Source: Candidatus Daviesbacteria bacterium (GTDB taxonomy: Bacteria > Patescibacteriota > Microgenomatia > Daviesbacterales > UBA10151). From it: a DNA stretch of 64,000 nt. The first letter of the stretch is position 1. Each line of letters starts with the position of its first letter. The notes under the pieces are model-generated. The model saw only the letters and a program-made list of their open reading frames with translations. It was not told where the DNA came from and ran no database searches. The position numbers were made by a program, and so were the translations under genes. Location: assembly GCA_016432425.1 (NCBI GenBank), contig CP066688.1, positions 148,368-212,367 on the forward strand, in the 5' to 3' direction. Below, in pieces: positions 7,773 through 60,877 of the stretch.

Positions 7773-10700
7773 TAGAGATTTATATTTTGGAAAATTTCCA
7801 CTTCTTCATTTTTATAAATACTTTTTAAATCAAATTTCTGCTGGTCGGGAGTAAAATCAGCAATTTTGGGAGTATAGATATATTTAATTTTAAATTCCTG
7901 CAAATATCTTTTGACTATTTCTTCTTCCCGCAAGGCAAAGATATCTTTGGCAATTTGCAGCCGGCCCCTAAAATCTACCCCTAAAATGTTTAAGTTGACT
8001 GTATCAGCTAAAAATTCTCTCTGCCCGGAAAAAGCTCCCACATAACCGGTGGATTCATAAGCCAGCAGCGGAATCGGTTCCACAAATTTTTGTTTTAACC
8101 TTTCATCATAATAAAAATTTAAAACTACTCCTTGAGGAAGTTGTCTTAAAAAGTCCAGCGCTGCTAGTTCTGCCCTTGAAATTCTGGCAGGCGGACGCTG
8201 AGGCAAAAAGTGGTTTAGGGTATCAAAAGTAGTAGGAATAGTTAAAATTACAATGACCAGCGCAAATATTTTCCCCCAAGATTTAAATTGATTTATCAAA
8301 AAAGCTATTGATATTCCTGCCAGCAGATTAAAAATGAAAATAAAATAGTAGAAAAATTGGACAATATTAAAGCTGCCTCCTTTTTGAATAAACAAAAGTG
8401 GAATAGTTAAAGACAACCCTAAAAATATTCCCATAAACAGATTCCAACGGTTGAGTTTAAGGAATTTTGCGCCAGACAATAGGACAACTATTCTGGTACC
8501 TAAATTACCAATCACAAAAATAATTAATCCTAAAACTTCAGCGGCTAAGAATTTGAAGTAATTACCTGTTTCTAAACCATTCATTCTGGCTAAAGAAAGC
8601 CTGGCAAAATTCAATCGGTCAACCGAATCAACCATGGAATGAACTAACCAAAAAGGCGAAAAAATTAGCAAAGTCCCTCCGGCTAAATTGTTTGGCAAAA
8701 AAATCAAAGCTGATAAAATCAACATTGGCCCAGTCAGTTTAATTAAGTCATATTTTTGTTTAACTGTCTCTATTAAGGTAAGTAAAAATAAACTTGCCAA
8801 GACTAAAATTCCGCCGTAAACTTTAAATTCAATCAAACTCCCCCATAAGATTATTAATGGAATCATCAGCGCCTGCTGGCGTTTTTGGTCATTTAATTTT
8901 TGAAACAGTACCAGCCCGGCCAAAAACAGCAAAAGAGAAATTGCCAAAGGATGGTTTAATAGAGTAGAAATTGACTGCTGTGCCCAAAATAAACTTTCTC
9001 CTCCCAAGCTTTTTTCTTTGAAATAGGACAAAACCCATCCGAAACTACCACCAAAATAAACAAAAAACACAGACCATTTGGCTGCTAAACGAGAGTTGCT
9101 CCAAGCATTAACCAATAAATAAGTTAAGATACCAATAAAAATAGCTAAAACCAAAGGATATAATCTAAAATAAAGGTCATTGACAGAAATGCTTGTTAAC
9201 TGAGAAGTTACTCCCAAAAGCAGATCATAAAAATAATGATAGTTTGTCAAAACAGTATTGCTAAAATTAGGGCTCTGCAATGGTAAACCTTCTTTAACCC
9301 TCTCCGCTAAACTGAAATGCCAAATTGCATCATGTCCGTTAGGGCCCCAAAAACCCAAACCATAATCAAAAAGTAAACCATTCTTCACTGAAGTCAACAG
9401 CCAAACTACTGAAGCCCCAATGATTAATAAACTGGATATTAAAAATTCTCTTGACCAGCTAATTTTTGGCCGGATCAAATTTTTCTGAAGGTACAAAATT
9501 GAAATAAGCGGTATGGCAAGCAGCCCCCAATAAAATTTAACAAAACCTAGCAAAAAGGCTCCCAAAGTAAAAAGGCATATTCCCAAAGGGATGGATAAAA
9601 TAAATTTTTCATTATCCGTGAGGGTAGTTTTTCGCAAAACAGAGAGCCCGGGCAAATAGAAAAAAATCGCAGAAAAAATTAAAAATATCATTAAATTTTT
9701 AAGTTGTTTAAACAAAACTATAAAAATATTTTCATAAAGATAATTTTGAAAAGAGTGAGGCATTTTGGTAACTTGATGAGAAGAAGAAATCGCTTGAGAA
9801 ATAGCGACGGAAATTGGCCGGGAGATACCGTCTATTTTAATGTCATTTGGCAAAAACTCCAAAGTTCTTTTGGTATTGGCTTGATTTAAATAACTTATTT
9901 GCAAACCTAAAACAGTAGGCTTTACTTCTATTTGAGAAATTTTACCCTCATCAATTAGCCAGCGGTCGCCGAAGCTGACTTCATCTAAATTTTTGGTTTC
10001 CATCATGGCCAAATTTAAGCTGGCACAAGCCTGGATAAGACAGGGCTCGTCGTGACTGTCAAAGTATTCCCGTAAATCCCGAATCACACTACCATCTTTG
10101 GTATAAAACCAGCCTAGACGATATTTAGAAGTCTGGTACCAAACTACTGCCCCGCTCCCTCCCAGAGGATCTTGGGCAAAAATAATTTTTGGGGGGGAAG
10201 TGGTGGGGAAAAGCGCAGAGTAACGGCGGGCAAAATCGGACATAGTCACAACTTTGACCCCGGTCTTTTGCAAATTGGCTACCGTCTCTAACTGATTAAT
10301 ATATTCCTTACCATATTCAACCCAGGAAAAATCATTTTCCAAACCAACAGTGACTTGACCTAAACTGGAATAAGGATTATCTAAATAAATACGTAATAAT
10401 TTTTTAAAATAATCAGTAGTTAAATTATGATATTTAGGGTTAGCATAATCATTGGCTTGCACGGAGTAAGTGCTATCTAATACTCCGTTGCCGAAACTAT
10501 TATAGGGATCACGGGCAGCCCATTGGATAGTAAGGACGCCAATTTTTTGGTCTGCTCCAGAGGCAGGCACTAGCGCATTTCTAGAAGCCGGATAAAAAGG
10601 GGTGGAAAAGTATTGTCCCCAAACTTGATAATTATCAGTCGTATATTGATCAGCCACATCCAAGTTAGCCACAATTCCGTAATTTTGTTTCATAAAGATA

Positions 10701-11188
10701 AGCGAGTTGGCATCAATCCACCAAGCGCCTACTGACTGGGGTGAAAATTTGAGAATTTCTTTAAATTTTTTAAAAGCGCTGTCAATTAATTTACGGCGCT
10801 CTTCCAGCGAGTAGCCGGTTAGGAAAACAGAACCGGCATCATGCCAGTTTGTATTTTGATGATAAGTTATTCCCGCGGAAGTGGCCCAAGTGGGGGTTAC
10901 TTCCATTAATAATCCAATCTCATGTTCAGGAGGAATATTTTTTAAAAAATTAACTATTTCATCATCAAATAAAGCATCCGGTCTGACTAACCAGGTAGCC
11001 TCTAATCCCCTATCTTGAATAGCTTCAAATTGTTGTTTGGTAGTAGTGACTGGTTTTTGAGGCAAACTAAAGAAATCACTCCCCCTAATCGGATTAACAA
11101 TGGTGATAAATTTTTCCGAAGCTGCTGATACTGTATCGGCAGCAAAAAGGAAAATTAGACAAATTAGTAAACTAATTAGAAAACGCAC
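7772..11188 (-). CDS. Large exported/multi-TM protein of unknown function (1138 aa)
   Basis: It has an N-terminal signal peptide (MRFLISLLICLIFLFAADTVSAAS), a ~480 aa extracytoplasmic domain, a ~550 aa polytopic TM block and a C-terminal soluble domain. It overlaps the flippase gene by 17 nt. Confidence 0.5.
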   Translation of the reverse strand: MRFLISLLICLIFLFAADTVSAASEKFITIVNPIRGSDFFSLPQKPVTTTKQQFEAIQDRGLEATWLVRPDALFDDEIVNFLKNIPPEHEIGLLMEVTPTWATSAGITYHQNTNWHDAGSVFLTGYSLEERRKLIDSAFKKFKEILKFSPQSVGAWWIDANSLIFMKQNYGIVANLDVADQYTTDNYQVWGQYFSTPFYPASRNALVPASGADQKIGVLTIQWAARDPYNSFGNGVLDSTYSVQANDYANPKYHNLTTDYFKKLLRIYLDNPYSSLGQVTVGLENDFSWVEYGKEYINQLETVANLQKTGVKVVTMSDFARRYSALFPTTSPPKIIFAQDPLGGSGAVVWYQTSKYRLGWFYTKDGSVIRDLREYFDSHDEPCLIQACASLNLAMMETKNLDEVSFGDRWLIDEGKISQIEVKPTVLGLQISYLNQANTKRTLEFLPNDIKIDGISRPISVAISQAISSSHQVTKMPHSFQNYLYENIFIVLFKQLKNLMIFLIFSAIFFYLPGLSVLRKTTLTDNEKFILSIPLGICLFTLGAFLLGFVKFYWGLLAIPLISILYLQKNLIRPKISWSREFLISSLLIIGASVVWLLTSVKNGLLFDYGLGFWGPNGHDAIWHFSLAERVKEGLPLQSPNFSNTVLTNYHYFYDLLLGVTSQLTSISVNDLYFRLYPLVLAIFIGILTYLLVNAWSNSRLAAKWSVFFVYFGGSFGWVLSYFKEKSLGGESLFWAQQSISTLLNHPLAISLLLFLAGLVLFQKLNDQKRQQALMIPLIILWGSLIEFKVYGGILVLASLFLLTLIETVKQKYDLIKLTGPMLILSALIFLPNNLAGGTLLIFSPFWLVHSMVDSVDRLNFARLSLARMNGLETGNYFKFLAAEVLGLIIFVIGNLGTRIVVLLSGAKFLKLNRWNLFMGIFLGLSLTIPLLFIQKGGSFNIVQFFYYFIFIFNLLAGISIAFLINQFKSWGKIFALVIVILTIPTTFDTLNHFLPQRPPARISRAELAALDFLRQLPQGVVLNFYYDERLKQKFVEPIPLLAYESTGYVGAFSGQREFLADTVNLNILGVDFRGRLQIAKDIFALREEEIVKRYLQEFKIKYIYTPKIADFTPDQQKFDLKSIYKNEEVEIFQNINL

Positions 11189-17951: not shown

Positions 17952-20167
17952 GACCTAACCTTCCTCGACTCTGGCGGTTTCCCGCTAGGATTATGTATTA
18001 GTTTAAATACTTTTACACCTCTAAACTGTGACTCTTCTTCTACCTTAGCCCAACCAAAGTGGGAAATTTCTTGTTTGGGATGGCCAATTGGCTCACAGAC
18101 AGGATCTTCACAAACCACAAATAACTGCTCCGTTATTTCAAATGGTATTTGAGCTGGTTTGTATCCATACAAACCTAAATAAAATTGATATGCAGCATCA
18201 TAGTTGTTTTTAGCGATCAGGGCAAAATTAAATGGTTTGTCCGCTGATTTCTCAATTACATACTTGGCTATATCCTGTGTCCTCTGTAGTTGGTTATTGG
18301 GCGCAAGAGTTAAGGGGCTTTTTTGTAGATTAAAAACTGCCAGAACTACAATCAAAACCGCGGCTGATATTTTCATTAATTGTTTTAATGGGCCAGTGTA
18401 AAAAAATGCTAAACTATAAAAACTCCCCAGTAGGATAAATGGTACCGGACTGACAAACCCTAAATAGTGGGCATAAACATTTTGTTTATATAAAGCCAAA
18501 CCTAAAAGTGATCCTGCGAGCCAAACACCTAACATTAAATAGGGCCAAGATAAAATACCATCCTTAATTTTTCTCCCGAAAAACAATGCTAAAGGTATTA
18601 AAACTGCAACTGAGGTAATTAAAGTCAAGGTTTTCTCTTGGACTGTCAAGTAAGTGCCAATTAAAGATTCTTGGTAGAGAGGGACAATCCTAAACAGAGA
18701 GTTGACAGGGTTTAAGTTAACAGTAGCCTCCCTGTTACCAAAAAAATTTTGCAAGGCCTGAAAGTTCATAAAATTATGTTTTAAGTCAAAAAGTAGGAGC
18801 GGGGACATTAAAATTAAAAATACCAAAATAGCCAATATTGTTCCCGACCTCACATTTCCTAATTCCCTTTTTTGAGACTTACTATAAATTATTTGATGTA
18901 GCCATAAAACTGCTGCTATAGGAATTAAAATTAAAGCCAGATAATGCATTTGGACAACAAAAGCCAGCGCTCCCCCGCTTAAAATGAGCCAGCGGAAATT
19001 ACCTGTTTGATGGATTTTATATAAACCAAATATGCAAAGTAAGGCAAAAAATGGCGCCGGATTAGGATTCCAAGATGAGCGGGAATAGATGATATTGACC
19101 GGTGAAATACTATAAAGAAAGGCTGCTACCAAACCGGCCTGTTTGGAAAACCACTGGCTCGTTAGATGGTAAATCAACCAGACTGTTAAAATTCCAATGA
19201 CAGCTACCTGGTAAGCTGCCGCGACGGGATTTAGCCAAAAAATAGCCATGGGAATTGCCATCATATAGTAATAAAGGGGGCCTAAATAAATATTGCCAAT
19301 GGAGGTAGGTGGGCCAATAAATGGTAGGTCACGTTCCACTAATAATTTTTTAATTACCAAAGCATCTCTCCCTTCATCGCCCAAAAAGGTCATATATTCC
19401 GGTAGGCGGTAAAATCGCAAAATCGCCGTTAACCCTAAAAGTAACATCAAAATTAGAAATTCTTTTTTATCCAAAAGTACCCACCACAGTTTTAGTAAAT
19501 CTAAATAACTTTTAGCGACCACTTTTAAATTGGCTCCGGTTTGGGTACCGAATTTTCTCGGGTAATGGTGTACTCCCACCTCTAAAATTTTAAAACCCAT
19601 TCTTCGGGCTTTAACCAAAAACTCTATCTGGGTGACTTTTTCCTCCCCCACTAACGGTTGAACTTTTTCAAAAACTTGTTTTTTAATTAATTTAAATCCA
19701 CAAGAATAATCTCTGACATTTAAACCTAAAAGTAGTTTTGCCCCTACATTCCACACATAAGCTCCCACTATTCTGCTGAAAGAGTCCATTCTTTTAAGCC
19801 TATATCCCAAAACTAAATCTGCCTGATCAGCTTTTTCCAAAAGTTTTTTAATCTCGCCAAAGTCAAATTGGCCATCTGAATCGGCAAAAGCTACCCAGGA
19901 AAATTTAGCTGCCTTGAATCCGGTTTTTAGCGCTGCCCCATAGCCTAAATTGTGGGGGTGGGCCACCAATTTAATTTTTCTGTTTGTTTGCGAAAAATTC
20001 TCAACGATTTCTCTGGTTTTATCTTTTGATCCATCATCCACCACCACAATTTCATAATCTTCTAAGGTCAATCCTGTCAGAACTTTTACTGAGTCCGCAA
20101 TAGTTTTTTGGATATTAGCTTCTTCGTTAAAAGCCGGGAAGAAAACAGATAATTTGTCTACACTCAT
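17948..20167 (-). CDS. Fusion protein: N-terminal GT2 polyprenol-phosphate sugar synthase plus C-terminal polytopic GT-C-like domain
   Basis: The N-terminal ~230 aa carry SVFFPAFNEEANI...VVVDDGSKDKT...FADSDGQ. The C-terminal ~500 aa are multi-TM. Confidence 0.7.
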   Translation of the reverse strand: MSVDKLSVFFPAFNEEANIQKTIADSVKVLTGLTLEDYEIVVVDDGSKDKTREIVENFSQTNRKIKLVAHPHNLGYGAALKTGFKAAKFSWVAFADSDGQFDFGEIKKLLEKADQADLVLGYRLKRMDSFSRIVGAYVWNVGAKLLLGLNVRDYSCGFKLIKKQVFEKVQPLVGEEKVTQIEFLVKARRMGFKILEVGVHHYPRKFGTQTGANLKVVAKSYLDLLKLWWVLLDKKEFLILMLLLGLTAILRFYRLPEYMTFLGDEGRDALVIKKLLVERDLPFIGPPTSIGNIYLGPLYYYMMAIPMAIFWLNPVAAAYQVAVIGILTVWLIYHLTSQWFSKQAGLVAAFLYSISPVNIIYSRSSWNPNPAPFFALLCIFGLYKIHQTGNFRWLILSGGALAFVVQMHYLALILIPIAAVLWLHQIIYSKSQKRELGNVRSGTILAILVFLILMSPLLLFDLKHNFMNFQALQNFFGNREATVNLNPVNSLFRIVPLYQESLIGTYLTVQEKTLTLITSVAVLIPLALFFGRKIKDGILSWPYLMLGVWLAGSLLGLALYKQNVYAHYLGFVSPVPFILLGSFYSLAFFYTGPLKQLMKISAAVLIVVLAVFNLQKSPLTLAPNNQLQRTQDIAKYVIEKSADKPFNFALIAKNNYDAAYQFYLGLYGYKPAQIPFEITEQLFVVCEDPVCEPIGHPKQEISHFGWAKVEEESQFRGVKVFKLIHNPSGKPPESRKVRS

Positions 20168-26024: not shown

Positions 26025-26426
26025 CTAGTATACCAAGTTATCTTCTATTTTTTTACTGTTGACGGGAATACCCAGAGACAATCCTAGAGCATTGGCTACT
26101 GAAACTCCCACTCTCAAACCAGTAAAAGATCCCGGCCCAGTTTCTACCTCAATTCCAGTCAAAATTTTCCAATTTGAATTTGCACAATTTGCACTCCTGG
26201 TCTGTTTTTGAACCTGCACTCCCGGAGTGTAGGTTTGAAGTAACTTTTCTATTAGTGGCAGTAAAACTTGAGATCCATACTCATTTTCCTGGCTTAAACT
26301 AGCCATTACTTCCCCATCTTTTTTAAGAGAAACCTCCACCACTTTTTGGTCTTTGGTATTAATATGGAGTATCATCATAATACGAATTTTACCACGAGCA
26401 GGGATGACATCATACACGCTTGACAA
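26025..26426 (-). CDS. tsaB: tRNA t6A biosynthesis protein TsaB-like (short form); the true start may be the internal Met near 26378
   Basis: ...ILTGIEVETGPGSFTGLRVGVSVANALGLSLGIPV matches the conserved TsaB/YeaZ core (GPGSFTG(L/V)R). It carries a 45-nt in-frame repeat insertion (see finding). Confidence 0.55.
   Translation of the reverse strand: MSSVYDVIPARGKIRIMMILHINTKDQKVVEVSLKKDGEVMASLSQENEYGSQVLLPLIEKLLQTYTPGVQVQKQTRSANCANSNWKILTGIEVETGPGSFTGLRVGVSVANALGLSLGIPVNSKKIEDNLVY
26188..26232. repeat. In-frame palindromic repeat element (45 nt) inside tsaB
   Basis: TTGCACTCCTGGTCTGT is a 17/17 reverse-complement match to 48593..48609. AACCTGCACTCCCGGAGTG is an 18/19 match to 48563..48581. Confidence 0.6.
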
Positions 26427-36290: not shown

Positions 36291-36390
36291 GAGTCCGCGG
36301 TTTTCTGTGATTTAAGTTTACAAACTTACAAGAAAACCCTACCAAAATTTTCCCCCAACCCCGCGGAAGTGTGTAATTACTTTTCAGTTG

Positions 36391-36422
36391 AACCCCGCTT
36401 TGAGAAAGCGGGGTTTTCTTGT
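36391..36422 (+). terminator. Rho-independent terminator-like hairpin (T-tract on the plus strand only)
   Basis: AACCCCGCTTT-gaga-AAGCGGGGTT followed by TTCTT. The flanking genes are both on the minus strand, so its role is unclear. Confidence 0.3.
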
Positions 36423-46822: not shown

Positions 46823-46898
46823 GCCGCGTTCGTCTAGTGGCCTAGGACATCGGATTCTCATTCCGAAAATCAGGGGTTCAAATCCCCTACGCGGTACC
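46823..46898 (+). tRNA. tRNA-Glu (anticodon CUC)
   Basis: A manual cloverleaf fold gives a 7-bp acceptor stem (GCCGCGU/ACGCGGU), a D-arm GUCUAGUGGCCUAGGAC, an anticodon stem UCGGA/UCCGA with loop UUCUCAU, and a T-arm AGGGGUUCAAAUCCCCU. The discriminator is A and CC is encoded. It is closely similar to canonical bacterial tRNA-Glu. Confidence 0.85.
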
Positions 46899-46906
46899 GA
46901 GCGATC

Positions 46907-46949
46907 CTACAAATTTAACCTGCAAACCTGCACTCCTGGAGTGAAATCG
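46907..46949. repeat. 43-nt direct repeat, copy 1 (half-element of the palindromic repeat family)
   Basis: CTACAAATTTAACCTGCAAACCTGCACTCCTGGAGTGAAATCG is identical to 48545..48587. Confidence 0.8.
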
Positions 46950-47184: not shown

Positions 47185-47949
47185 ATGGCTACTGAAGGTC
47201 AACCAACACCAATTCCAAATTTAATTATTGCCCATGTCAACGAAAATCTTTTATTAACCCATGTTAGGACTGTTTCAGATCCTAAGTCTTTACTAGATCG
47301 AAACACCATACATGGAGATCCCTATTTACATAACGTTAAACTTTTCGCAGCCTTTAAAGAACCAGAATATGATCCTGCTAAGATGACTGCTGCTTTAAAT
47401 GAATTAATCACAGCACTAAGATCTTATGAATTTAAAGGAAGTGCTATGGGAAGTAGAATAGATCGTTTTTGGCATGGGGCTGGCAATTTAGTTCCTGGAG
47501 TATTATTTCTTCACGAGCCAATGGGTATAAGAGTAGAAACAAGTACTTGGAGTTTTAAACCCAACAATGAATATGCCAGAGGAGTTATGGCTCAAGCAGG
47601 AATGGAAGAGGGACAAGAGCATACAAAAGTTGAAGAAAAACCTATGTGGAGACAGGTTTCTACTACTATTCTCCCTTCGATCCCCTTAGCAAACTTAGCT
47701 GCAACTAATGAAGAAATGAGTAATATTCCAAAACAGGAGGACAGACCATTTCCTGTTAAAAATTCCTTATATGCGTATCATGGGGTATTAAGCCTGGGAG
47801 ACCTTGAGAAGCTTAAACAAGATCCAACTTATGTACAGGAGATGGCTGATAAAGCATTAGTGGGTTACAGAGTTCCAGGAATAACTAGAAGACCAGGAAG
47901 AATTGAAAGAATAGCTCAAACTTTTGGTTTTCTGCCTTCTCAAGGTTAA
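47185..47949 (+). CDS. Hypothetical protein (254 aa) in the tRNA-adjacent islet
   Basis: This is an ORF with a strong upstream promoter. No family is recognised. Confidence 0.5.
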   Translation: MATEGQPTPIPNLIIAHVNENLLLTHVRTVSDPKSLLDRNTIHGDPYLHNVKLFAAFKEPEYDPAKMTAALNELITALRSYEFKGSAMGSRIDRFWHGAGNLVPGVLFLHEPMGIRVETSTWSFKPNNEYARGVMAQAGMEEGQEHTKVEEKPMWRQVSTTILPSIPLANLAATNEEMSNIPKQEDRPFPVKNSLYAYHGVLSLGDLEKLKQDPTYVQEMADKALVGYRVPGITRRPGRIERIAQTFGFLPSQG

Positions 47950-48353
47950 CTCTTTTTAGCTTCTTTAATTTTATCAGTTATTTCTTTTTTTGAATATTCC
48001 TTATCTATTCTGAAAAAGATTGTGTAACTTTTCTTCTTTAATGGATTTGGATAAATAAAAATACAGACTTCAGGGATATAACCTCCATTTTTAATCTTTT
48101 TAGATTTATGCCATTTGTAGAGTCTTATCAGTAATTTCTCAATTTGGCTAGCTAGAAGGCTAGAAAATACTCCTAACCAGAATTCCTTCATGGTTAGCCA
48201 AGCCACTACAATTTCCTTTATCTCAGCTTCGCCGCCCCCACCCATTTGACCAGCTTTATATTTAAAACCTAGCTTTTCTAGTTCTTGAGCAAGAGAAGAA
48301 GAGGCAGGCTTATTATAGATATAAGGGTCTTCTCTTACAGAGTAGTATTTCAT
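47946..48353 (-). CDS. Hypothetical protein (135 aa), convergent with and overlapping the previous gene by 4 nt
   Basis: The ORF is K-rich at its C-terminus and has a hydrophobic segment (WLGVFSSLLAS). No family is recognised. Confidence 0.4.
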   Translation of the reverse strand: MKYYSVREDPYIYNKPASSSLAQELEKLGFKYKAGQMGGGGEAEIKEIVVAWLTMKEFWLGVFSSLLASQIEKLLIRLYKWHKSKKIKNGGYIPEVCIFIYPNPLKKKSYTIFFRIDKEYSKKEITDKIKEAKKS

Positions 48354-48544: not shown

Positions 48545-48608
48545 CCTACAAATTTAACCTGCAAACCTGCACTCCTGGAGTGAAATCGAATTGACAGACC
48601 AGGAGTGC
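48545..48608. repeat. Palindromic repeat element, full copy (43-nt direct repeat plus an inverted arm forming an 11-bp stem)
   Basis: 48545..48587 equals 46907..46949. TGCACTCCTGG (48567..48577) pairs with CCAGGAGTGCA (48598..48608) around a 20-nt loop. Confidence 0.7.
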
Positions 48609-48694
48609 AAGTTCAGACTGAAATGCACAAATCTAGTTTAGTAATTAGGTTTGGTAATTAGGGATAATATGATATCCGCTCTCTTGTTTATTCA

Positions 48695-50783: not shown

Positions 50784-53210
50784 TTAGGCCAAAGCCGGAG
50801 CCGGGCCCAATGGTATACTCTTGCGGGCGGCTGATTGAGGAGGACGGGTTAGCGCCACTTTGATCGCTTCATCAATGTGTTTAACGAACACAAATTTAAT
50901 ATCTTTAAAAATGTAGTTTGGGATATCTTCTAAATCTTTGCGATTATCTTCTGGAGCAATAATTATTTTTACTCCCGCCCGGTGAGACGCAATTACTTTT
51001 TCTTTTAAGCCTCCAATTTCTAAAATGCGGCCCCTTAAGGTAATTTCTCCGGTCATGGCCACATCTTTTTTGACAGGAACTCTAGTAAAAGCCGAGATAA
51101 TGGCCAAAGTCAACGCTCCTCCAGCTGAAGGCCCGTCTTTAGGCTGAGCCCCTTCGGGAACATGGATATGAACATCAACTTTGTGGAAAAACTTTTCCGG
51201 CAGCCCTAGCTCTCTCCAATGGGAACGGACATAGCTCATAGCGGCGTGGGCACTTTCTTTCATTACTTCACCTAGCTGCCCGGTTAGCTGAACCGAGCCT
51301 TTACCCGGCATTAAATTAACTTCAATAAACATGATCGACCCTCCCACTTCACTCCAGGCCATGGCAGTTGAGACTCCCACTGTATCTTCAATTTCTGCCA
51401 GCTCCGGCAAGAATTTAACCGGTCCCAAGTATTCATTGAGATCTCGCTGTGTTATTTTAAAACTTTTATTTTTATTGCCCTCGGCAATTTTGCGGGCAAT
51501 TTTTCTCATCACTCCGGAAATTTCTCTCTCTAAATTGCGGACTCCAGCCTCTCTGGTATATTGCTGGATAATGGCATTAACCGCCTCTGCAGTAAAGTTA
51601 GTTTCAGTTTTACCCAAACCATTAGCCCCAATTTGTTTGGGGATTAAAAAGTTTTTGGCAATATGGAATTTTTCATCCTGGGTATAGCCGGCATAACGAA
51701 TCACCTCTAGCCGATCTCTAAGAGCCGGAGGAATGGTATCTAAAATATTGGCGGTGGTAATAAACATAACGTTCGATAAATCATAAGGTACTTCTAAATA
51801 ATGGTCGGAAAAAGCATTGTTTTGTTCCGGATCCAAAGCCTCCAGCAGGGCAGCCGAAGGGTCACCGCGGTAATCAGCACCAATTTTGTCAATCTCATCC
51901 AGCATAAAAACCGGATTGACAGCCCCGGCCTGTTTAATAGCCTGGATAATACGTCCGGGCATTGACCCGACATAAGTCCTTCTGTGTCCCCGAATTTCTG
52001 CCTCATCACGAATTCCTCCCAAAGAAACTTTGACAAATTTTCGCCCCAAGGCTTTGGCAATAGATTTACCAATGGAGGTTTTACCGGTGCCAGGAGGACC
52101 CACAAAACATAAAATTGGGCCGTGTACCTTACCGGAAAGTTTATGAACTGCCAAATATTCAATAATTCTTTCTTTAACCTTTTTTAAACCATAATGATCA
52201 GCATCCAAAATCTGTTGAGCATTCTTCAGGTCAATTCTTTTGCCCTTACTTAATCTCCAAGGTAAATCAGTTAACCATTCAAGATAATTTCTAATATAAC
52301 CGGCCTCGGGGTTATAAGAACTCATCTTGGCTAGGCGATTTAACTCTTTGTGGGCTTTGTTTAAAACTTCTTTGGGCATACCGGCCTTTTTAATTTTAAG
52401 TTCCAACTCTTTAATCTCTACATTCTCGCCATTTTCCCCCAGTTCTTCTTCAATGCTGCGCATTTGCTCACGCAAAATAGCTTCTTTAGTCATCCGAGAA
52501 ACTCTCTCTTGAGTTTGAGAGGAAATTTTTTGTTGAATTTCTAAGATGCGAATCTCTTTTGAGAGCAGATCAGAAATACGCTGTAAGCGCTCTTGGGCTG
52601 ACACCATCTCCAAAATTTGTTGCTTATCAATAGTTTTAAAATCTATAGCTTGAGCAATGGAGTTCACCAACTGGTTGGGATCATCACTGTAGGTAAAAAG
52701 ACTCCAATTTACCAAACTACCTTGATCAAAAAAGGGATTGCCACCTAGTTCCAGATATCTTTTGAGTTGATCCCGAACAGCCCTAATGAGAGCTTCTGTT
52801 TGTTCGCTTTTTTCATATAGTTCCGGGATTTCTTCAATTTCTGCTTCCAAATACGGTTCTGTTCGGACAAAATTTTTGACAAAAACCCGAGCCAAACCTT
52901 CTGCCTGGAGGGTATATTCCCCTTCGGTATTAATGACGGCCCGACGGATCAGGCAAACTGTCCCCACTTTATATAAATCTTTTTCAGCCGGATCTTCAAT
53001 CTTGGGATTTTTTTGGGTCACAAAAAGAACTAATTTATCGCTATTCCAAGCTAAATCCAAAGCAGCTTTGGATTTAGAACGACCGGAAATAATGGGTACG
53101 GAATTACCCGGGAAAATTACCGTATCCCGCAGCGGCCCCACAGGAATGGTAGGTTTTAGTTTAATAGGCTCTTGTAGAATATTTTTTGAATTTCCTGGTA
53201 CAAAATTCAT
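50784..53210 (-). CDS. lon: ATP-dependent Lon protease
   Basis: The N-terminal LON domain is followed by an AAA+ Walker A (GPPGTGKTS) and the C-terminal Ser-Lys protease motif (PKDGPSAG). Confidence 0.9.
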   Translation of the reverse strand: MNFVPGNSKNILQEPIKLKPTIPVGPLRDTVIFPGNSVPIISGRSKSKAALDLAWNSDKLVLFVTQKNPKIEDPAEKDLYKVGTVCLIRRAVINTEGEYTLQAEGLARVFVKNFVRTEPYLEAEIEEIPELYEKSEQTEALIRAVRDQLKRYLELGGNPFFDQGSLVNWSLFTYSDDPNQLVNSIAQAIDFKTIDKQQILEMVSAQERLQRISDLLSKEIRILEIQQKISSQTQERVSRMTKEAILREQMRSIEEELGENGENVEIKELELKIKKAGMPKEVLNKAHKELNRLAKMSSYNPEAGYIRNYLEWLTDLPWRLSKGKRIDLKNAQQILDADHYGLKKVKERIIEYLAVHKLSGKVHGPILCFVGPPGTGKTSIGKSIAKALGRKFVKVSLGGIRDEAEIRGHRRTYVGSMPGRIIQAIKQAGAVNPVFMLDEIDKIGADYRGDPSAALLEALDPEQNNAFSDHYLEVPYDLSNVMFITTANILDTIPPALRDRLEVIRYAGYTQDEKFHIAKNFLIPKQIGANGLGKTETNFTAEAVNAIIQQYTREAGVRNLEREISGVMRKIARKIAEGNKNKSFKITQRDLNEYLGPVKFLPELAEIEDTVGVSTAMAWSEVGGSIMFIEVNLMPGKGSVQLTGQLGEVMKESAHAAMSYVRSHWRELGLPEKFFHKVDVHIHVPEGAQPKDGPSAGGALTLAIISAFTRVPVKKDVAMTGEITLRGRILEIGGLKEKVIASHRAGVKIIIAPEDNRKDLEDIPNYIFKDIKFVFVKHIDEAIKVALTRPPQSAARKSIPLGPAPALA

Positions 53211-53271: not shown

Positions 53272-53802
53272 CTAAAAGTCAATACCTTTCTTTGCTATAA
53301 GCCCTTTCTTAAAGGGGTGTCTAACCTCTCTCATCTCTGTCACCAAATCAGCCTTTTTAATAAGCTGCATGGGCGCCTGGTGACCGGTTAATACTAAATC
53401 CAATTGTTGGGGTTTTTGATCAATAAGTTGTAACAGTTGAGTAAGAGGTAAAATTTTACTGGCTACTGCCCCCACAATCTCATCAGCTACTATAATATCC
53501 CATTTCCCTGACATTATTTCCTTAGATAATAGAGTGTAAGTTTCTTGGGCTGCTTTTTTATGAATTGAAAGAGGAACTTTGCTACCCAAAATATCTAAAA
53601 AACCTTTTCCTCCTTGAATGATTTTTACTCCCGGTCCCAATTTTTTAATTCCCACCAGCTCTCCCGTAAACCAAGCTTTACCAAATTGAACTATTAAACA
53701 TTTTTTCTTATAACCCACCGCCCGCAGCACCAAACCGAGCGCGGCCGTAGTTTTCCCCTTCCCCTCACCTGTATAAATAATAACCAGCCCCTTTTCTTCC
53801 AT
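53272..53802 (-). CDS. Cob(I)yrinic acid a,c-diamide / corrinoid adenosyltransferase (CobA/BtuR family)
   Basis: GLVIIYTGEGKGKTTAALGLVLRAVGY...CLIVQFGKAW carries the P-loop and the conserved core of CobA/CobO/BtuR. Confidence 0.7.
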   Translation of the reverse strand: MEEKGLVIIYTGEGKGKTTAALGLVLRAVGYKKKCLIVQFGKAWFTGELVGIKKLGPGVKIIQGGKGFLDILGSKVPLSIHKKAAQETYTLLSKEIMSGKWDIIVADEIVGAVASKILPLTQLLQLIDQKPQQLDLVLTGHQAPMQLIKKADLVTEMREVRHPFKKGLIAKKGIDF

Positions 53803-53826
53803 GAACCCATTCTACCAAACCCTTCT

Positions 53827-54570
53827 CAATTTATATTTCCACATCGGGAGTGGAATTATATTGACACATCGGTAAAATTGAGATACACTCAGCTGTAAAT
53901 GCCAGCAAGAACTACTCCTCTGGTAAATGAACAAATTTATCATATATATAATCGGGGTACAGAGAAAAGAAGAATCTTTGATAATAAAAGGTGTTATTCA
54001 AGATTCATACAGACTATTAGATATTATCAGCTAGAAGGCCCTAAACCTAAGTTTTCTAACTTTATTAAACAGAAGTTATTTAATCCTGATCCCGAGAAGA
54101 AGATAGTTGAAATAATCTGTTATTGTTTAATGCCAAATCACTTTCACTTATTGGTTAAACAATTAAAAGATGGGGGAATTAGTGAATTTATGAGAAAACT
54201 AAGTGATAGCTATACTAAATACTACAATATTAAATTTGAAAGAGTAGGAGCTTTATTACAAGGTCCATTTAAAGCAGTTTTAATAGAAACTGATGAACAG
54301 CTCACACATGTGTCCCGCTACATTCATTTAAATCCACTAGTGTCTTTTTTGGTAAAGGATTTAGCTCAATACGAATGGTCATCTTATGAAGAATACATTA
54401 ATAATAAATCAATTGGTATTTGTGTTAAAGAAAATGTGTTAGGTTTTTTCAAATCACCAGAGGATTATAAACAATTTGTCCTAGACCAAGCAGGTTATGG
54501 TCAACAACTAGAATTAATCAAACACCAATTAGTAGATGAATAATTTTGAGCCTACACATCGGGAGTGGAA
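53827..54570 (+). mobile_element. IS200/IS605-like or RAYT-type HUH Y1 transposase unit with 16-nt flanking direct repeats
   Basis: The transposase ORF is bracketed by CACATCGGGAGTGGAA at 53830..53845 and 54555..54570. Each repeat sits within a short inverted repeat (TTCCAC...GTGGAA). Confidence 0.7.
53899..54543 (+). CDS. REP-associated tyrosine transposase / IS200-family HUH transposase (COG1943-like)
   Basis: YHIYNRGTEKRRIF...CYCLMPNHFHLLVKQ (HUH motif)...YTKYYN...GALLQGPFKAV...SRYIHLNPL (catalytic Tyr helix). 214 aa. Confidence 0.8.
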   Translation: MPARTTPLVNEQIYHIYNRGTEKRRIFDNKRCYSRFIQTIRYYQLEGPKPKFSNFIKQKLFNPDPEKKIVEIICYCLMPNHFHLLVKQLKDGGISEFMRKLSDSYTKYYNIKFERVGALLQGPFKAVLIETDEQLTHVSRYIHLNPLVSFLVKDLAQYEWSSYEEYINNKSIGICVKENVLGFFKSPEDYKQFVLDQAGYGQQLELIKHQLVDE

Positions 54571-54576
54571 AGCTAA

Positions 54577-54834
54577 TTGGATACCCCTTGCAACTACTTG
54601 TATAATCAAATCATGAATGATATAGCTTATACATTAAATCCTCAGCTTATTGATGTAAAAATTAATAAGGATCTGCAAGATAATCAGCTTTTAAGTCTCT
54701 ATGAAGTTAATAAGATTTGTAGAAAAGTTATTACCAGCCAAGATATTTTTAATAAAGAGTTAAATTTACAAGAAAAATATAAAGGTTATATTGCTAATTT
54801 CATCTTTGAGGAAGTCAAAAAACTTAACACTTAG
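54577..54834 (+). CDS. Hypothetical small protein (85 aa), possible transposon cargo
   Basis: The ORF lies immediately after the right repeat. Its 3' end overlaps the nrdJ stop region convergently. Support is weak. Confidence 0.25.
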   Translation: MDTPCNYLYNQIMNDIAYTLNPQLIDVKINKDLQDNQLLSLYEVNKICRKVITSQDIFNKELNLQEKYKGYIANFIFEEVKKLNT

Positions 54835-57535
54835 AATATCCGCAGGAGAGGCATTTTTGGCAACCTTCCATAAAGACAAAACTGGCTGTACCACACTCCG
54901 GACAAAAATCTGCTGTATCCGAGGTTGACAGGGGGAGGCTAGGAGTGATACTACTTTCATCGACAGTCAAATTTAGTGGCACTATCTCCCCAGCTTCAGA
55001 GTGGTCATTAAGAGATAAATCTTCACTGAGCGCTTTGGCAATAGCATCAGCCAAACTCATCACCCGGTCTTTACCAAATCCAATTTGAGAGGCACCCCCA
55101 ATCCCCTTAAGCTGCGAGACAATCTTTTTGGCCACCTCTTGTGAGTGAGGACGGGAAATCCGCAGAGAGAGGGAAATTAACCGGCCAATTGCTTCTGCAT
55201 CAGCACCGGTATGCATACCCGCTTTACCAATGGTCACAAATACCTCAAATGGATTATCACTATTGTCACGGTTAATCGTAATAAACGCTTCCCCCACCGG
55301 AGTATTAATTTTGTAGGTCCGACCCCGCAAAATTACTGGCCGCTGGCCCAAAGTATCACTAGTTGTGGCAGATGGGACCACATCAGGACTGCCCAATACC
55401 TTTTCCTCGCCTACCTTAAAGTTGGTTCCTCCCGCCAGCTGGTCATAATAAGAGTTATCTTTTTTAACCTCCAACACCTGTTTTTCCCGGGAACCATCAC
55501 GGTAAATGGTAATCCCTTTGCAACCCAGCTCATAAACCATCATATAGGCCCGTCTGACATCTTCTACTGTAGCGCCGTGCGGGAAATTGATTGTTTTGGA
55601 AATAGCATTGTCTACATGGGCTTGAAAAGCGGCTTGGATTCTAACATGATCTTCAGGAGCAATATCGTGAGTAACCACAAATACTTTTTGCCATTTTTCG
55701 GGAACTTCCGAGAGTCTCTGGACTGACCCATGATTTTGCTCAATTTTTTCCAGTAGCTTCTCTGAGTAGAAACCTTCATCTTGGGCTACCTTTAAAAAAT
55801 AGGGGTTGGTATTAAAAAGCCTTTTCCCTTCAATAGTATTTTTGGCATAGGATAAACCAAAAATAGGCTCAATTCCAGAGGAAGCATCAGCCAGCATCGA
55901 GATAGTACCGGTAGGAGCAATGGTAGTCACGGCTGCATTCCTAATTTTAAGTTCTTCTCCTAAAAAGTAGGAACTTTGGGGATCAAAAATTGACCCTGCC
56001 CAAGCCGGAAAAACACCACGAATTTTAGCCAACTCCACGCTCGCTTCTTTAGAGGCTTTTTGGATACACTCCATAACATCTTCAGCAATTTGGCGCCCCT
56101 CCGGGGTGTTATACCCAATCCCCAGTTGATAAAGTAAGTCAGCAAAACCCATGATACCAAGTCCCACCCTTCTAATTTTCCTGGTCATCTCAAAAATTTC
56201 TGGAATCGGGTAATTGTTCATATCTAAGACATTATCCAAAAAATGCACTGCTTGTTTGGTTACTTCTGTCATTTGCGGATAGTCAATTACCCCATCTTTA
56301 ACAAACTTACCTACATTAATTGATCCCAAAGTACAAGCATCATAAGACAGTAACGGTTGCTCGCCACAGGGGTTTGTGGCTTCAATTTGGCCTAAATTAG
56401 GAGTGGGATTAGCTCCGGAAGCATTAATCCGGTCAATCATAATCATCCCCGGGTCACCATAATGCCAAGCCAGCTGGGTAATAAGCAAAAACACTTTTTT
56501 GGCATTGAGTCGATCAGTCACCTGGTCATTGCGGGGGTTAATCAGTTCATAACCTTCCCCTTTTTCTTTTGCCCGTACCAAGTCATAAAGTTTAGCCACT
56601 CCATCTTCTACCTTTTTTAGTTTCAAATCCACATCCCGGATCGCTTGAGCCAGTTTGATCTCTTCAATAATTTCTTCCCAGTTAGGCTCTGCTGTCACAA
56701 ATTTACTGTCTTTTTCTACCTGCCTCATCCACTCTTCAGTGACGGTAACGGAAATATTAAAATTAGTGAGAGAAAATTCATCCACCTTCATGACGGCAAA
56801 GCGGAGGATATCCGGATGGGTAATATGCATGATCCCCATGTTGGCGCCACGTCTGACTCCACCCTGTTTAACTTGGGAAGTAACGTCATTGTAGGCTTGG
56901 AGAAATGAGGTGGGCCCCACCGTACTGCCGCCGGAAGAGCGGATCACATCTCCATAAGGGCGCAGCCGGGAGAAAGAAAAACCTGTTCCCCCCCCAGATT
57001 TGTGGATCATCACCATATCAACTAAAGTTTTGGCGATTGAATGCATATCATCTTCCACCGGCAGAACAAAACAAGCTGACAACTGCTGCATCGGTCGGCC
57101 GGCATTTAACATGGTGGGAGTATTGGGAATAAACTTTTGGGAAACCATCAGGGCATAAAACTCCTTGGCAACTTTGAGCATATTATCTTTATCAGGATCA
57201 AATAATAAATTTGCCGCGGCAATATTGTAGGCCACCCGCCAAAACATTTCTTTAGCGCTCTCAACGGGTTTACCATCTTCATCCCGGCGGGCATAACGGG
57301 TTTTGCCAATATATAAAGCATTTTCGGATAGGTTTGGTTGCGGTAAATCCAGCGGAGGAGGGGGGATCGTCCGGCCAATTTCCCAAACTTGCTCTATCTT
57401 GTAGTGCAACTTACCGCTAATATGGACCCCGTTACTTTTTCTTTTCTTGGGGGTCGGGGCGGAAACTACTTGAAGCACCGCGGCTGATTTGAGGGAAGTT
57501 TTCTTTTTCATAGTCCTCCAGGATTTTGTGGACAT
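54824..57535 (-). CDS. nrdJ: Adenosylcobalamin-dependent ribonucleotide reductase (class II)
   Basis: 903 aa. It has conserved RNR ten-strand barrel motifs and active-site cysteines. The C-terminal Cys-rich zinc ribbon is CPECGTASFVFMEGCQKCLSCGYSKC. No NrdB/NrdF partner is adjacent. Confidence 0.85.
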   Translation of the reverse strand: MSTKSWRTMKKKTSLKSAAVLQVVSAPTPKKRKSNGVHISGKLHYKIEQVWEIGRTIPPPPLDLPQPNLSENALYIGKTRYARRDEDGKPVESAKEMFWRVAYNIAAANLLFDPDKDNMLKVAKEFYALMVSQKFIPNTPTMLNAGRPMQQLSACFVLPVEDDMHSIAKTLVDMVMIHKSGGGTGFSFSRLRPYGDVIRSSGGSTVGPTSFLQAYNDVTSQVKQGGVRRGANMGIMHITHPDILRFAVMKVDEFSLTNFNISVTVTEEWMRQVEKDSKFVTAEPNWEEIIEEIKLAQAIRDVDLKLKKVEDGVAKLYDLVRAKEKGEGYELINPRNDQVTDRLNAKKVFLLITQLAWHYGDPGMIMIDRINASGANPTPNLGQIEATNPCGEQPLLSYDACTLGSINVGKFVKDGVIDYPQMTEVTKQAVHFLDNVLDMNNYPIPEIFEMTRKIRRVGLGIMGFADLLYQLGIGYNTPEGRQIAEDVMECIQKASKEASVELAKIRGVFPAWAGSIFDPQSSYFLGEELKIRNAAVTTIAPTGTISMLADASSGIEPIFGLSYAKNTIEGKRLFNTNPYFLKVAQDEGFYSEKLLEKIEQNHGSVQRLSEVPEKWQKVFVVTHDIAPEDHVRIQAAFQAHVDNAISKTINFPHGATVEDVRRAYMMVYELGCKGITIYRDGSREKQVLEVKKDNSYYDQLAGGTNFKVGEEKVLGSPDVVPSATTSDTLGQRPVILRGRTYKINTPVGEAFITINRDNSDNPFEVFVTIGKAGMHTGADAEAIGRLISLSLRISRPHSQEVAKKIVSQLKGIGGASQIGFGKDRVMSLADAIAKALSEDLSLNDHSEAGEIVPLNLTVDESSITPSLPLSTSDTADFCPECGTASFVFMEGCQKCLSCGYSKC

Positions 57536-60034: not shown

Positions 60035-60877
60035 TTAAATATTAACAATTTCAGAGAGAGTTTTAAACCGTGTTGGTAAAGTGTCAGAGAAAAACTCTTC
60101 TTGTTTTGTCCCCTGTAAAGTTAACCCTTCTTGCCAAAGGGCCCGGCCAGCCAAAAATCCCCGGGCCCCAGCTTTGGTAGCTACTGCCAGTTGCAATTTA
60201 AATTCTTCAAAACTAACACCACCCGTCAACAGTATCCAGGGGGTCTTTCCCACCAAATGAGAAATTTCCCGGCAGGCATCCTCATCTCCTGGATATTCCA
60301 ATTTCCAAACATCTGGTATTACTCCTACCTCTATAAAAGACCTGACTGATTCAATCACCATCCCAGCTTTTGAATCTACACTCCCGATGTGGAATTGTAC
60401 CTGCACATCGGGAGTGTAAGTTACAATTTCTAAAAAGAAAGGCAAATTATTTTGCTGACAATCTTTTAAAACCTGTTTAGCTGTTTCTAGCTGCACTTTT
60501 GCACTCCCTAATTGAGGATTAAAATAGACCAGTAATTTCGCTCCTGAGGCTCCTAAGTTTTTAACCTGCTCTACAGAATATTCTAATTCCGTAATTCTTT
60601 CTCTCTCCTGATCAAGAAAACCGCTTTTTTCTACAGGAAGCAGAAATGGTTTTAGTTGACAAGCTTCTTTGCAAGCTTCTAGACCAAAACGCTCGTCAAT
60701 CAAAAGCCCACTCATTTCATTGACCAAAGAATTAATGATTTTATTTTTTAGATCAATAATTTGCTCTTCTGTAACCTCCTGGGGGTTTCCCGGATTAACT
60801 ATTTTTTTAAAACTATCCCGATGATCCAAAGCCAACATTAAAAACTTACCGTTTTTTTGGAATTTAATGGTATTCAT
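60035..60877 (-). CDS. Class I aldolase, tagatose-1,6-bisphosphate aldolase (LacD)/DhnA-like, carrying an in-frame palindromic insert
   Basis: LMLALDHRDSF resembles the LacD-family N-terminal motif. The (beta/alpha)8 pattern runs through ...LLTGGVSFEEF. Confidence in the exact family is moderate. Confidence 0.55.
   Translation of the reverse strand: MNTIKFQKNGKFLMLALDHRDSFKKIVNPGNPQEVTEEQIIDLKNKIINSLVNEMSGLLIDERFGLEACKEACQLKPFLLPVEKSGFLDQERERITELEYSVEQVKNLGASGAKLLVYFNPQLGSAKVQLETAKQVLKDCQQNNLPFFLEIVTYTPDVQVQFHIGSVDSKAGMVIESVRSFIEVGVIPDVWKLEYPGDEDACREISHLVGKTPWILLTGGVSFEEFKLQLAVATKAGARGFLAGRALWQEGLTLQGTKQEEFFSDTLPTRFKTLSEIVNI
60377..60418. repeat. Perfect 15-bp-stem palindromic element (42 nt) lying in-frame inside the aldolase gene
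   Basis: TACACTCCCGATGTG-gaattgtacctg-CACATCGGGAGTGTA. The arms match the transposase-flanking repeat CACATCGGGAGTG. Confidence 0.75.

Follow-up and report, generated by a model that had tools for sequence, protein, structure and literature searches.

The stretch of DNA analysed here, a 64-kb segment of contig CP066688.1 of Candidatus Daviesbacteria bacterium (hereafter the window, with positions counted from its first letter), contains at 53899-54543 a Y1/HUH gene of 214 amino acids that is bracketed by two direct copies of a 16-nucleotide (nt) repeat and lies between the genes of a corrinoid adenosyltransferase and of an nrdJ-type reductase. We consider it likely that this gene encodes a resident, vertically inherited Y1/HUH single-stranded DNA (ssDNA) endonuclease/ligase resembling the REP-associated tyrosine transposases (RAYT; REP, repetitive extragenic palindrome), that gene and cognate hairpin module make up a single unit, and that in-frame hairpin doublets related to such modules are found elsewhere in the genome. 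What is described is a sparse RAYT/REPIN-like system in Microgenomates and not a jumping insertion sequence (IS). An earlier reading of the same DNA, made from its letters alone (the sequence-only reading), had presented the gene as the candidate mobiliser of a palindromic repeat family, and its claims are taken up below where the results bear on them.

The Y1 gene and its flanking repeats

The unit is composed of the following features:

53899-54543, + strand: Y1/HUH endonuclease gene, 214 amino acids, recognised by Pfam Y1_Tnp, an AlphaFold2 (AF2) model and invariant residues
53837-53855, + strand: left hairpin H1, TTCCAC-ATCGGGA-GTGGAA, with a 6-bp stem when 53815-53900 is folded as DNA
53840-53855, + strand: left copy of the 16-mer CACATCGGGAGTGGAA, an exact repeat inside H1
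53861-53889, + strand: promoter-like element TTGACA-17 nt-TACACT, found by consensus scan with 10 of 12 matches
53864-53872, + strand: hairpin half-copy ACACATCGG, a half-site repeat overlapping the promoter-like element
54555-54570, + strand: right copy of CACATCGGGAGTGGAA, in direct orientation, 11 nt past the Y1 stop codon

The 16-mer occurs exactly twice in the window, both times on the + strand and once on each side of the Y1 open reading frame (ORF), and when up to three mismatches are allowed it has four matches where 0.16 are expected, a number reached in none of 100 shuffles. The direct bracketing repeats had been described in the sequence-only reading, and both exact copies as well as the position of the right one (54555-54570) are borne out; the left one had been given as 53830-53845 and is found at 53840-53855. 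Each copy had also been placed in a TTCCAC...GTGGAA hairpin, which the fold supports for the left copy; the right copy reads CTACAC...GTGGAA and pairs just CAC with GTG, and a hairpin like the left one is ruled out there by the fold, with its 3-bp stem and a z of +0.86 relative to shuffles. The AAGCTAA that follows the right copy recurs past the downstream hairpin in many relatives. On the upstream side the ATG stands 9 nt past the TACACT hexamer, a layout of the leaderless type. A looser motif, CACNNNNGGAGTG, was found at six loci of the window (26217, 46931, 48570, 53840, 54555 and 60379/60404) against 0.08 expected, and these include a TsaB-like ORF (26217) and both ends of a tRNA-Glu islet (46931, 48570).

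The ORF contains, as previously noted, both the HUH motif PNHFHLL (residues 79-85, nt 54133-54153), whose His81 and His83 are encoded by nt 54139-54147, and the tyrosine helix SRYIHLNPL, which holds the catalytic Tyr141 (nt 54319-54321). Its assignment to the Y1 transposases of the IS200/RAYT group is sustained by Pfam Y1_Tnp (PF01797), matched by residues 66-143 with 35.3 bits against a cutoff of 23, and by the fold. Since a sequence search of the PDB returned a weak match to ISDra2 alone (E 0.17), a fold search was needed. The AF2 model, built from 51 homologs in a shallow alignment (65-78% identity), has a pLDDT of 80.3 and a pTM of 0.80, and its best Foldseek match in the PDB is 4er8 (E 4.4e-6, TM 0.65 on target), the E. 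coli REP-associated tyrosine transposase in complex with a REP hairpin. The top matches (4er8, 2vjv, 2a6m and 2xqc) all have probability 1.00, and the TnpA structures of IS608 and ISDra2 rank after 4er8. H81, H83 and Y141 are invariant in the 51 homologs, as is W160-S161-S162, which sits in a helical C-terminal extension; a Pfam search of this tail detected no helix-turn-helix/DnaA-C domain. Judged by sequence and predicted fold, the ORF encodes an enzyme of the Y1/HUH (TnpA-Y1) superfamily, kin to RAYT and IS200 proteins.

In the classification of PMC6006769, as set out in its class descriptions, the tyrosine motif Y---NP marks class 2 and Y---Q marks IS200 (subclass 1.1), while subclass 2.1 is defined by NH[YF]H, Y[IV]HLNP, a length of more than 200 (about 240) amino acids and a Ser-containing C-terminal tail; this subclass is Group 1 of Bertels and overlaps the 'TIRYT' proteins. 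The tyrosine motif found here, YIHLNP, is of the class-2 Y---NP kind, and together with NHFH, the length of 214 amino acids and the W160-S161-S162 tail it matches the motifs of subclass 2.1 (Table 1 of PMC6006769). By these motifs the protein appears closest to the class-2 'RAYT' proteins and subclass 2.1-like.

The hairpin module and gene order in related loci

We retrieved 79 related loci (cited below by L numbers) from Daviesbacteria, Levy-, Curtiss-, Beckwith-, Woyke-, Chisholm- and Blackburnbacteria, all of them Microgenomates. In nearly every locus a short hairpin stands upstream of the ATG, at a distance of about 55-65 nt (or 30-35 nt), and is found again 0-35 nt past the stop codon, its sequence varying by locus (CACATCGGGAGTG, CCACCTCGGGGGTGG, CACCCTTGGGGTG, CAATCCCGGATTG, CAAACCCGGTTTG, ACACACCCGGTGTGT and others). 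The upstream order is the hairpin, TTGACA(C), a -10-like hexamer 17 nt on and the ATG 8-9 nt further. Of 78 related loci, 63 have a TTGACA-like box 34-41 nt 5' of the ATG, and in most related loci the equivalent of H1 is placed 4-8 nt 5' of this box, with compensatory changes in the stem; in the 'type B' loci the hairpin is inside the promoter spacer. Hairpin and TTGACAC box are both repeated past the stop codon in L001, L004, L006, L007, L009 and L014, and in L001, L004 and L007 a single exact repeat of 40-46 nt stands at both gene ends.

The median local score between the two flanks of one gene is 20, that of non-cognate pairs is 8, and in 58 of 77 loci the flanks match above the non-cognate 95th percentile. 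Among these 77 the direct orientation scores better in 62 and the inverted one in 14; in the window the repeats are direct. Own-pair flank scores of the syntenic orthologs average 29.5 and cross-pairs 15.8, hence the two ends evolve in concert. Covariation was evaluated in an alignment anchored on the TTGACA box, with no selection for the hairpin: 76.6% of the cells are paired, a share that does not exceed 52.7% once the alignment is slid, and 71 stem cells show double changes where shuffles give 31 +/- 8 (0/500). Across the relatives, flank hairpin and Y1 gene clearly belong together. The sequence-only reading had asked whether the repeats are associated with any other copy or hairpin; they are, by this association and by an inverted doublet in an aldolase gene (see below). 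That the 16-nt direct repeat might be a chance match unconnected to the gene, as its shortness and the scarcely folding right copy would allow, has hardly any probability in view of the four matches for 0.16 expected (with 0/100 shuffles reaching four), of a gene-flank relation that holds in 58 of 77 independent loci of differing sequence, and of a hairpin backed by covariation.

The CACATCGGGAGTG hairpin also flanks the distant paralogs of L132 and L148, which are 48-49% identical to the query, and in L132 the complete module is directly repeated at both ends. Another Y1_Tnp subfamily was observed at L082:512-1153 and L084:11288-11947, with proteins of 213 and 219 amino acids. Its genes are accompanied by short G-rich inverted repeats (GGGTCCGACCC/GGGTCGGACCC; GGGGACGGTCC/GGACCGTCCCC), similar to published TIRYT repeats, that abut the start and stop codons in L082 and lie within about 60 nt of them in L084. 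The L082 gene directly adjoins the aldolase gene.

In the window the unit is placed between a cobO/BtuR-type adenosyltransferase gene (53272-53802, - strand) and an nrdJ-type reductase gene (54824-57535, - strand), the neighbours that the sequence-only reading had named. The order H+-PPase, lon, cobO, Y1, nrdJ is kept in 12 further species-level genomes among the retrieved loci (L001-L004, L006, L007, L009-L012, L014 and L023), whose identity to the window is 64-75% for the Y1 protein, 62-76% for cobO and 76-78% for Lon. By this comparison the cobO-Y1-nrdJ order is ancestral in the source Daviesbacteria clade, which does not support the former adjacency of cobO and nrdJ that the sequence-only reading had thought possible; a recent insertion that split the pair is ruled out by the conserved three-gene order. 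Units of the same module type in other contexts (L005, L008, L035 and L208) point to occasional relocation.

The Y1 gene has one copy in the window, and in genomes with two or three copies the paralogs are 46-69% identical. PMC6006769, where it treats this measure, puts intragenomic identity at about 99% among IS200 copies and at about 49% in subclass 2.1. The family is large: at least 544 encoded relatives were confirmed in species-representative genomes and the protein has more than 7,900 close homologs, of which the top 120 are 65-78% identical and 206-259 amino acids long, nearly all 211-217. An exhaustive homolog search gave 534 clusters at 50% identity (E <= 1e-30), nearly all of 210-230 amino acids. 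The sequence-only reading had proposed to distinguish an IS-like from a RAYT-like element by looking for additional copies, and the single window copy, the 12-genome synteny and the divergence of the paralogs favour the RAYT-like alternative.

The same observations bear on the idea of an active IS200/IS605-type IS, recently inserted between cobO and nrdJ, whose ends would be the direct hairpins. Such an element would be in agreement with the Y1_Tnp domain, with similar same-strand hairpins at both ends, as in IS200/IS605, and with the same module type in the contexts of L005, L008, L035 and L208. We nevertheless regard it as very unlikely, since the gene occupies the same position in 12 other species-level genomes with a divergence like that of its neighbours, is single in 64 kb, has paralogs 46-69% identical where IS200 copies reach about 99% (PMC6006769, in the same comparison), carries Y---NP and not the Y---Q of subclass 1.1, and encodes 214 amino acids with a C-terminal extension and no accompanying tnpB. 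The active IS and the chance match are both essentially excluded.

Some observations on the neighbourhood of the unit are added here. Between the right repeat and nrdJ lies an 85-codon ORF (54577-54834) with a TTG start and an ATG at 54613, the latter preceded by a promoter-like TGGATA-17-TATAAT site. It was rejected as a partner gene, having no Pfam hit and not being conserved in the syntenic loci; in L010 and L023, which are syntenic, a gene of 140-144 amino acids is found in its place. The nrdJ match is continuous in the window and in L003 and is split into two blocks about 1.1 kb apart in L001 and L007 (about 7100-10850), which suggests that the reductase of some relatives may carry an intein or other insertion. 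Many 'binchicken' metagenome-assembled genome records among the loci (L001-L003, L005, L007-L010 and others) are titled 'uncultured Gammaproteobacteria bacterium', and they have the window gene order at 70-79% protein identity; these titles are probably a placeholder or mistaken taxonomy.

Hairpin doublets and a second Y1 locus

Away from the gene, the hairpin-related features of the window are these:

60376-60419, no strand assigned: REPIN-like inverted doublet in an aldolase gene, arms ACACTCCCGATGTG / CACATCGGGAGTGT with a 12-nt spacer, fold -17 kcal/mol, z -6.6
26191-26230, no strand assigned: in-frame doublet in a TsaB-like gene (26025-26426, - strand), peptide TYTPGVQVQKQTRSA
48569-48620, + strand: orphan module composed of hairpin GCACTCCTGGAGTG, 8 nt, and TTGACA + GACCAGGAGTGC + CAGACT, fold z -4.2
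46906-46949 and 48545-48588, + strand: perfect 44-nt direct repeat that contains the orphan-module hairpin (repeat family D7)

The sequence-only reading had found an inverted pair of related sequences inside the aldolase gene, and this is confirmed. The other two matches to CACATCGGGAGTGGAA with up to three mismatches, 60376-60391 (-) and 60404-60419 (+), make up a perfect palindrome with 15-bp arms, which is translated in-frame (TYTPDVQVQFHIGSV) within a DUF2090/LacD-type aldolase gene (60035-60877, - strand). Its arms agree with the core of the Y1 gene hairpin at 13/13 positions, and by this match the doublet is cognate to the hairpin of the living Y1 gene at 53.8 kb. Distant PDB homologs align at this segment without a gap, and among Daviesbacteria orthologs the insertion is lineage-specific, being absent from P0140, P0147, P0171, P0218 and P0231. 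The window, L080 and L082 have the same two 13-nt arms on either side of a variable spacer, and in L084 a different palindrome, CACCTCGGAGGTG, is found at the same loop. All same-amino-acid codons of the arms are identical (9/9), and elsewhere in the gene the counts are 84/169 and 108/195; by these counts the arms are conserved at synonymous sites.

The CTGCACTCCYGGAGTG copies in tsaB and around the tRNA-Glu islet had been taken for diverged copies of the 53.8-kb repeat. They belong instead to a second Y1 locus, at tRNA-Glu/H+-PPase, whose gene is lost here. No Y1 gene follows the orphan module at 48569-48620. The corresponding position is occupied in L020 by tRNA-Glu, the module, a Y1 paralog and H+-PPase, and in L206 by the last three of these; the paralog beside H+-PPase is present in L017 and L019 as well and absent from the window locus. 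Since the window has the module alone where L020 and L206 carry the Y1 paralog, the gene was lost there. A reciprocal orphan exists at L019:12130-12180, where a solo module is found next to cobO and the cobO-locus Y1 gene is missing. On these comparisons, two Y1 loci would explain the two hairpin types of the window.

The TsaB doublet, TTGCACTCCTGGTCTGT, agrees with the reverse complement of 48569-48620 at 17/17 positions; as far as this match indicates, it is cognate to the orphan module and not to the Y1 gene at 53.8 kb. The TsaB insertion, of 11-19 amino acids, is absent from the 100-amino-acid orthologs. In JAQTPP010000001.1 the flanks of the Y1 gene at the H+-PPase locus carry CAAACCCGGTTTG / CAAACCGGGTTTG; the arms in tsaB, CAATCCCGGTTTG...CAAACCGGGATTG, match this genome's own PPase-locus hairpin at 12/13. 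Because the tsaB arms are matched to the local hairpin and their sequences differ by genome, the tsaB insertion changes in step with the local Y1 hairpin. It was also observed that the same loop in tsaB and aldolase homologs holds insertion peptides that differ by genome (TYTPGV.., TYNPGL.., TSEVSAQGSAGLH..). Each loop peptide corresponds to a different palindromic hairpin class, and the 'insertions' found at these sites in bacteria of the candidate phyla radiation (CPR) would therefore be repeat-derived.

The 44-nt repeats bound a 1.6-kb islet. It is preceded by tRNA-Glu(CTC) at 46823-46898, a second copy of the tRNA 3' end (GGTACCGAGCGAT) is seen at about 48485, and its two ORFs, 47185-47949 (+) and 47946-48353 (-), match no Pfam family and nothing in the fetched loci is related to them. 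The islet has the appearance of an integrated remnant, or else of a cassette with the hairpin module on its flanks.

Copies of the hairpin are few. The window has six hairpin loci in four units and one cognate doublet in 64 kb, and 485 kb of related loci hold six cognate copies away from the gene (about 1 per 80 kb). The palindromic repeat family that the sequence-only reading had the enzyme mobilise is not an abundant one, with distal copies not above background. Five strong palindromes are present in the window, among them the doublets at 48564-48613 and 60376-60419. The three others (2055-2084, 36390-36416 and 53050-53078) do not belong to the hairpin family; that at 36390 is rich in GC and resembles a terminator, and that at 53050 is inside lon. 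Gene-less modules occur in L047 (two perfect 25-mers), L048, L077 and L099. At L099:3000-3400 two gene-less three-part modules, each with an inverted half-site, a CACATCGGGAGTG hairpin and a direct half-site, stand 314 nt apart with unrelated hairpins between them; this pair may represent clustered remnants of modules, or else a miniature derivative. A metagenome scan for CACATCGGGAGTGKA gave mostly chance 15-mer matches and was informative just for L097, L099, L127, L132 and L148. A 73-nt direct repeat is also present in the window (1447-1519, 6265-6337 and 20001-20073), with its first two copies 96% identical to each other and 63% to the third; the copies are probably conserved segments of paralogous genes.

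Explanations and comparison with known systems

If the gene is a resident RAYT-like enzyme that forms one unit with its module, a mechanism can be outlined by analogy with 4ER8, IS608 and ISDra2, members of a family whose biochemistry is established. The Y1 enzyme would bind the folded hairpin on single-stranded DNA and would cut and rejoin the strand beside it by means of His81/His83, a metal ion and Tyr141. Cutting at equivalent positions of direct sites could release or re-insert the intervening strand, which would be possible because the two sites are usually direct. Such release and re-insertion would keep the two ends identical and would now and then delete the gene, leaving a solo module, and in this manner would account for the concerted ends as well as for the solo modules after gene loss. 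Rarely, hairpin doublets would be seeded elsewhere, and those in-frame in tolerant loops, as in aldolase and TsaB, would have persisted. We infer the binding, the cleavage, the choice of strand, the promoter function and the origin or upkeep of the doublets by the enzyme; mobilisation by the Y1 enzyme, the role proposed for it in the sequence-only reading, is presumed in the same manner.

Several results weigh against this interpretation. The hidden Markov model check proposed in the sequence-only reading succeeded with PF01797 and failed with the RAYT model, the NCBIfam equivalog REP_Tyr_transpos (NF047646), which gave 53.3 bits under a cutoff of 80, and the placement in subclass 2.1 is one of motif comparison and not of phylogeny. 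The right repeat region of the window folds no better than shuffles, and neither in the window nor in the syntenic alignment is a GTAG/GTGG (the 5' GT[AG]G tag) found before the stems, GTGG being seen solely within the 3' arm. Distal cognate copies are found at 1.24 per 100 kb and the non-cognate background at 0.71, no clear enrichment, and a generic single-hairpin search of the window gave 8 hairpins against 4.9 +/- 1.8 in shuffles, with three known ones clear and no hidden hairpin population. The aldolase doublet is old, being common to L080 and L082. Moreover, in the L080 genome the aldolase arms are CACATCGGGAGTG and the cobO-locus Y1 hairpin is CACCCTTGGGGTG, so the matching is not universal, and in JACPDA the tsaB arms, CACTCCAGGAGTG, match neither of the Y1 hairpins known there (ACACCCCAAGGGTGT, CACCTCGAAGGTG).

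Some of these points would be expected if the hairpin modules were purely cis-regulatory, acting as promoter/operator or as transcript-end/stabiliser, with a separate host function for Y1 and with the doublets as old fossils of shared ancestry. The TTGACA/-10 layout is indeed highly conserved and overlaps the hairpin, which in type B loci is inside the spacer, dispersed copies are few, and the aldolase doublet is older than the species splits and in L080 is mismatched with the neighbouring Y1 hairpin. This explanation is in our opinion unlikely, as it leaves unaccounted for the duplication past the stop codon of a 40-46-nt module that includes the promoter box, the missing T-run, the 14 loci with an inverted arrangement and the gene-less modules of L047, L048, L077 and L099. 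It also leaves unexplained the synonymous-site conservation of the intragenic arms and the parallel change, from genome to genome, of the tsaB arms and the local Y1 hairpin.

We are also tempted to mention a bolder proposal, although we consider it quite improbable, namely that Microgenomates possess a self-maintaining HUH 'hairpin-cassette' system in which the Y1 enzyme cuts at directly repeated modules, homogenises the ends by excision and re-insertion of the strand between them and refreshes the doublets in essential genes, and in which the modules may flank other cargo. An enzyme that installs or refreshes doublets would explain why those of tsaB and aldolase track the local hairpin and resist synonymous change, and the 1.6-kb tRNA-Glu islet between perfect 44-nt copies would be an example of non-transposase cargo. 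If true, this would amount to a cassette mechanism that is integron-like, works on single strands and uses HUH chemistry, and to a case in which a domesticated transposase continuously shapes protein-coding sequence.

Among transposase-derived elements that are maintained by vertical inheritance, RAYT/REPIN systems provide the best example; they are known mainly from Proteobacteria, with hundreds of extragenic repeats. With the REPtrons, such as E. coli TnpA-REP/RayT (4ER8) and Pseudomonas RAYT-REPIN, the resident RAYT-like unit that we favour shares the HUH + Y1 fold and the Y---NP motif, as well as low copy number, diverged paralogs, vertical inheritance and conserved synteny, a hairpin of its own at the gene, a type of its own for each paralog and inverted REPIN-like doublets elsewhere (PMC6006769, in its descriptions of these elements; PMC5581495). 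However, the REPs that flank REPtron genes are typically inverted and have a 5' GT[AG]G tag at the hairpin foot, whereas the flanking hairpins found here are mostly direct, lack the tag and are short, with stems of 4-8 bp. REPs number tens to hundreds and are mostly extragenic, while the dispersed copies found here are a handful, those of the window being intragenic or orphan modules. Moreover, the Microgenomates module carries the promoter-like box of the gene, and the protein is longer than RAYTs and does not reach the NCBIfam cutoff for them.

The 'TIRtrons' of subclass 2.1, Bertels Group 1 or TIRYT proteins share the motifs, the Ser-bearing extension, the length of more than 200 amino acids and the approximately 50% intragenomic identity (PMC6006769 and PMC3733652, in their accounts of these proteins). 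The module even appears as terminal inverted repeats in 14 of 77 relatives, a minority trait. In its account of subclass 2.1, PMC6006769 reports that no REP-like structures were found near the genes. TIRYT repeats are inverted and carry GGGGWSAS (PMC3733652, where it describes them), a motif not present at the gene flanks of the window, and the module found here consists of a hairpin that covaries, is mostly in direct orientation and has a promoter box embedded in it. The available text of PMC6006769 and PMC3733652 does not include Microgenomates (CPR) hosts, and literature searches for CPR/Patescibacteria with RAYT/IS200-type or tyrosine transposase returned nothing linking them.

With IS200/IS605 elements (IS608 and ISDra2 TnpA) the system has in common the fold and the catalytic motifs, subterminal same-strand hairpins at both ends (the right window copy being degenerate) and an upstream hairpin beside the promoter. 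Those elements are multicopy and near-identical, unlike the Microgenomates Y1 gene, which is neither and was not recently inserted, and the protein differs from their TnpA by Y---NP in place of Y---Q, by about 70 extra C-terminal residues and by the lack of tnpB. IS200/IS605 elements are further marked by presence/absence polymorphism and by insertion 3' of a specific tetra- or pentanucleotide, with no target duplication and with bases at the hairpin foot guiding the cleavage sites. With Rickettsia palindromic elements (RPE) and intragenic REPs, as described in the relevant part of PMC3733652, the doublets share their in-frame position in housekeeping genes, the addition of residues in loops (here 11-19) and translation with no stops. 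In contrast to RPE, the intragenic palindromes found here can be tied to the flanking hairpin of a specific Y1 gene; synonymous sites in their arms are conserved, and from one genome to another the palindromes vary along with that hairpin.

In-frame intragenic REPs and RPE, REPtrons and TIR-flanked 'TIRtrons' (TIR, terminal inverted repeat) were thus already known (PMC3733652 and PMC6006769, in the parts that treat them; PMC5581495). Compared with these, the present system would differ by its CPR/Microgenomates host, by a subclass that had been reported without hairpin partners, by the mostly direct orientation, by the promoter-like box in the module, by the tiny repeat population and by intragenic insertions tied to a given Y1 locus. 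It suggests that a large family in ultra-small, gene-dense CPR genomes shows the RAYT/REPIN logic in a stripped-down form, consisting of one gene, two hairpin modules bearing a promoter box and a handful of copies, some of them translated within essential genes. The proteins of subclass 2.1/Group 1 would gain a candidate DNA substrate, and some of the lineage-specific peptide insertions in CPR proteins would be explained by hairpin repeats.

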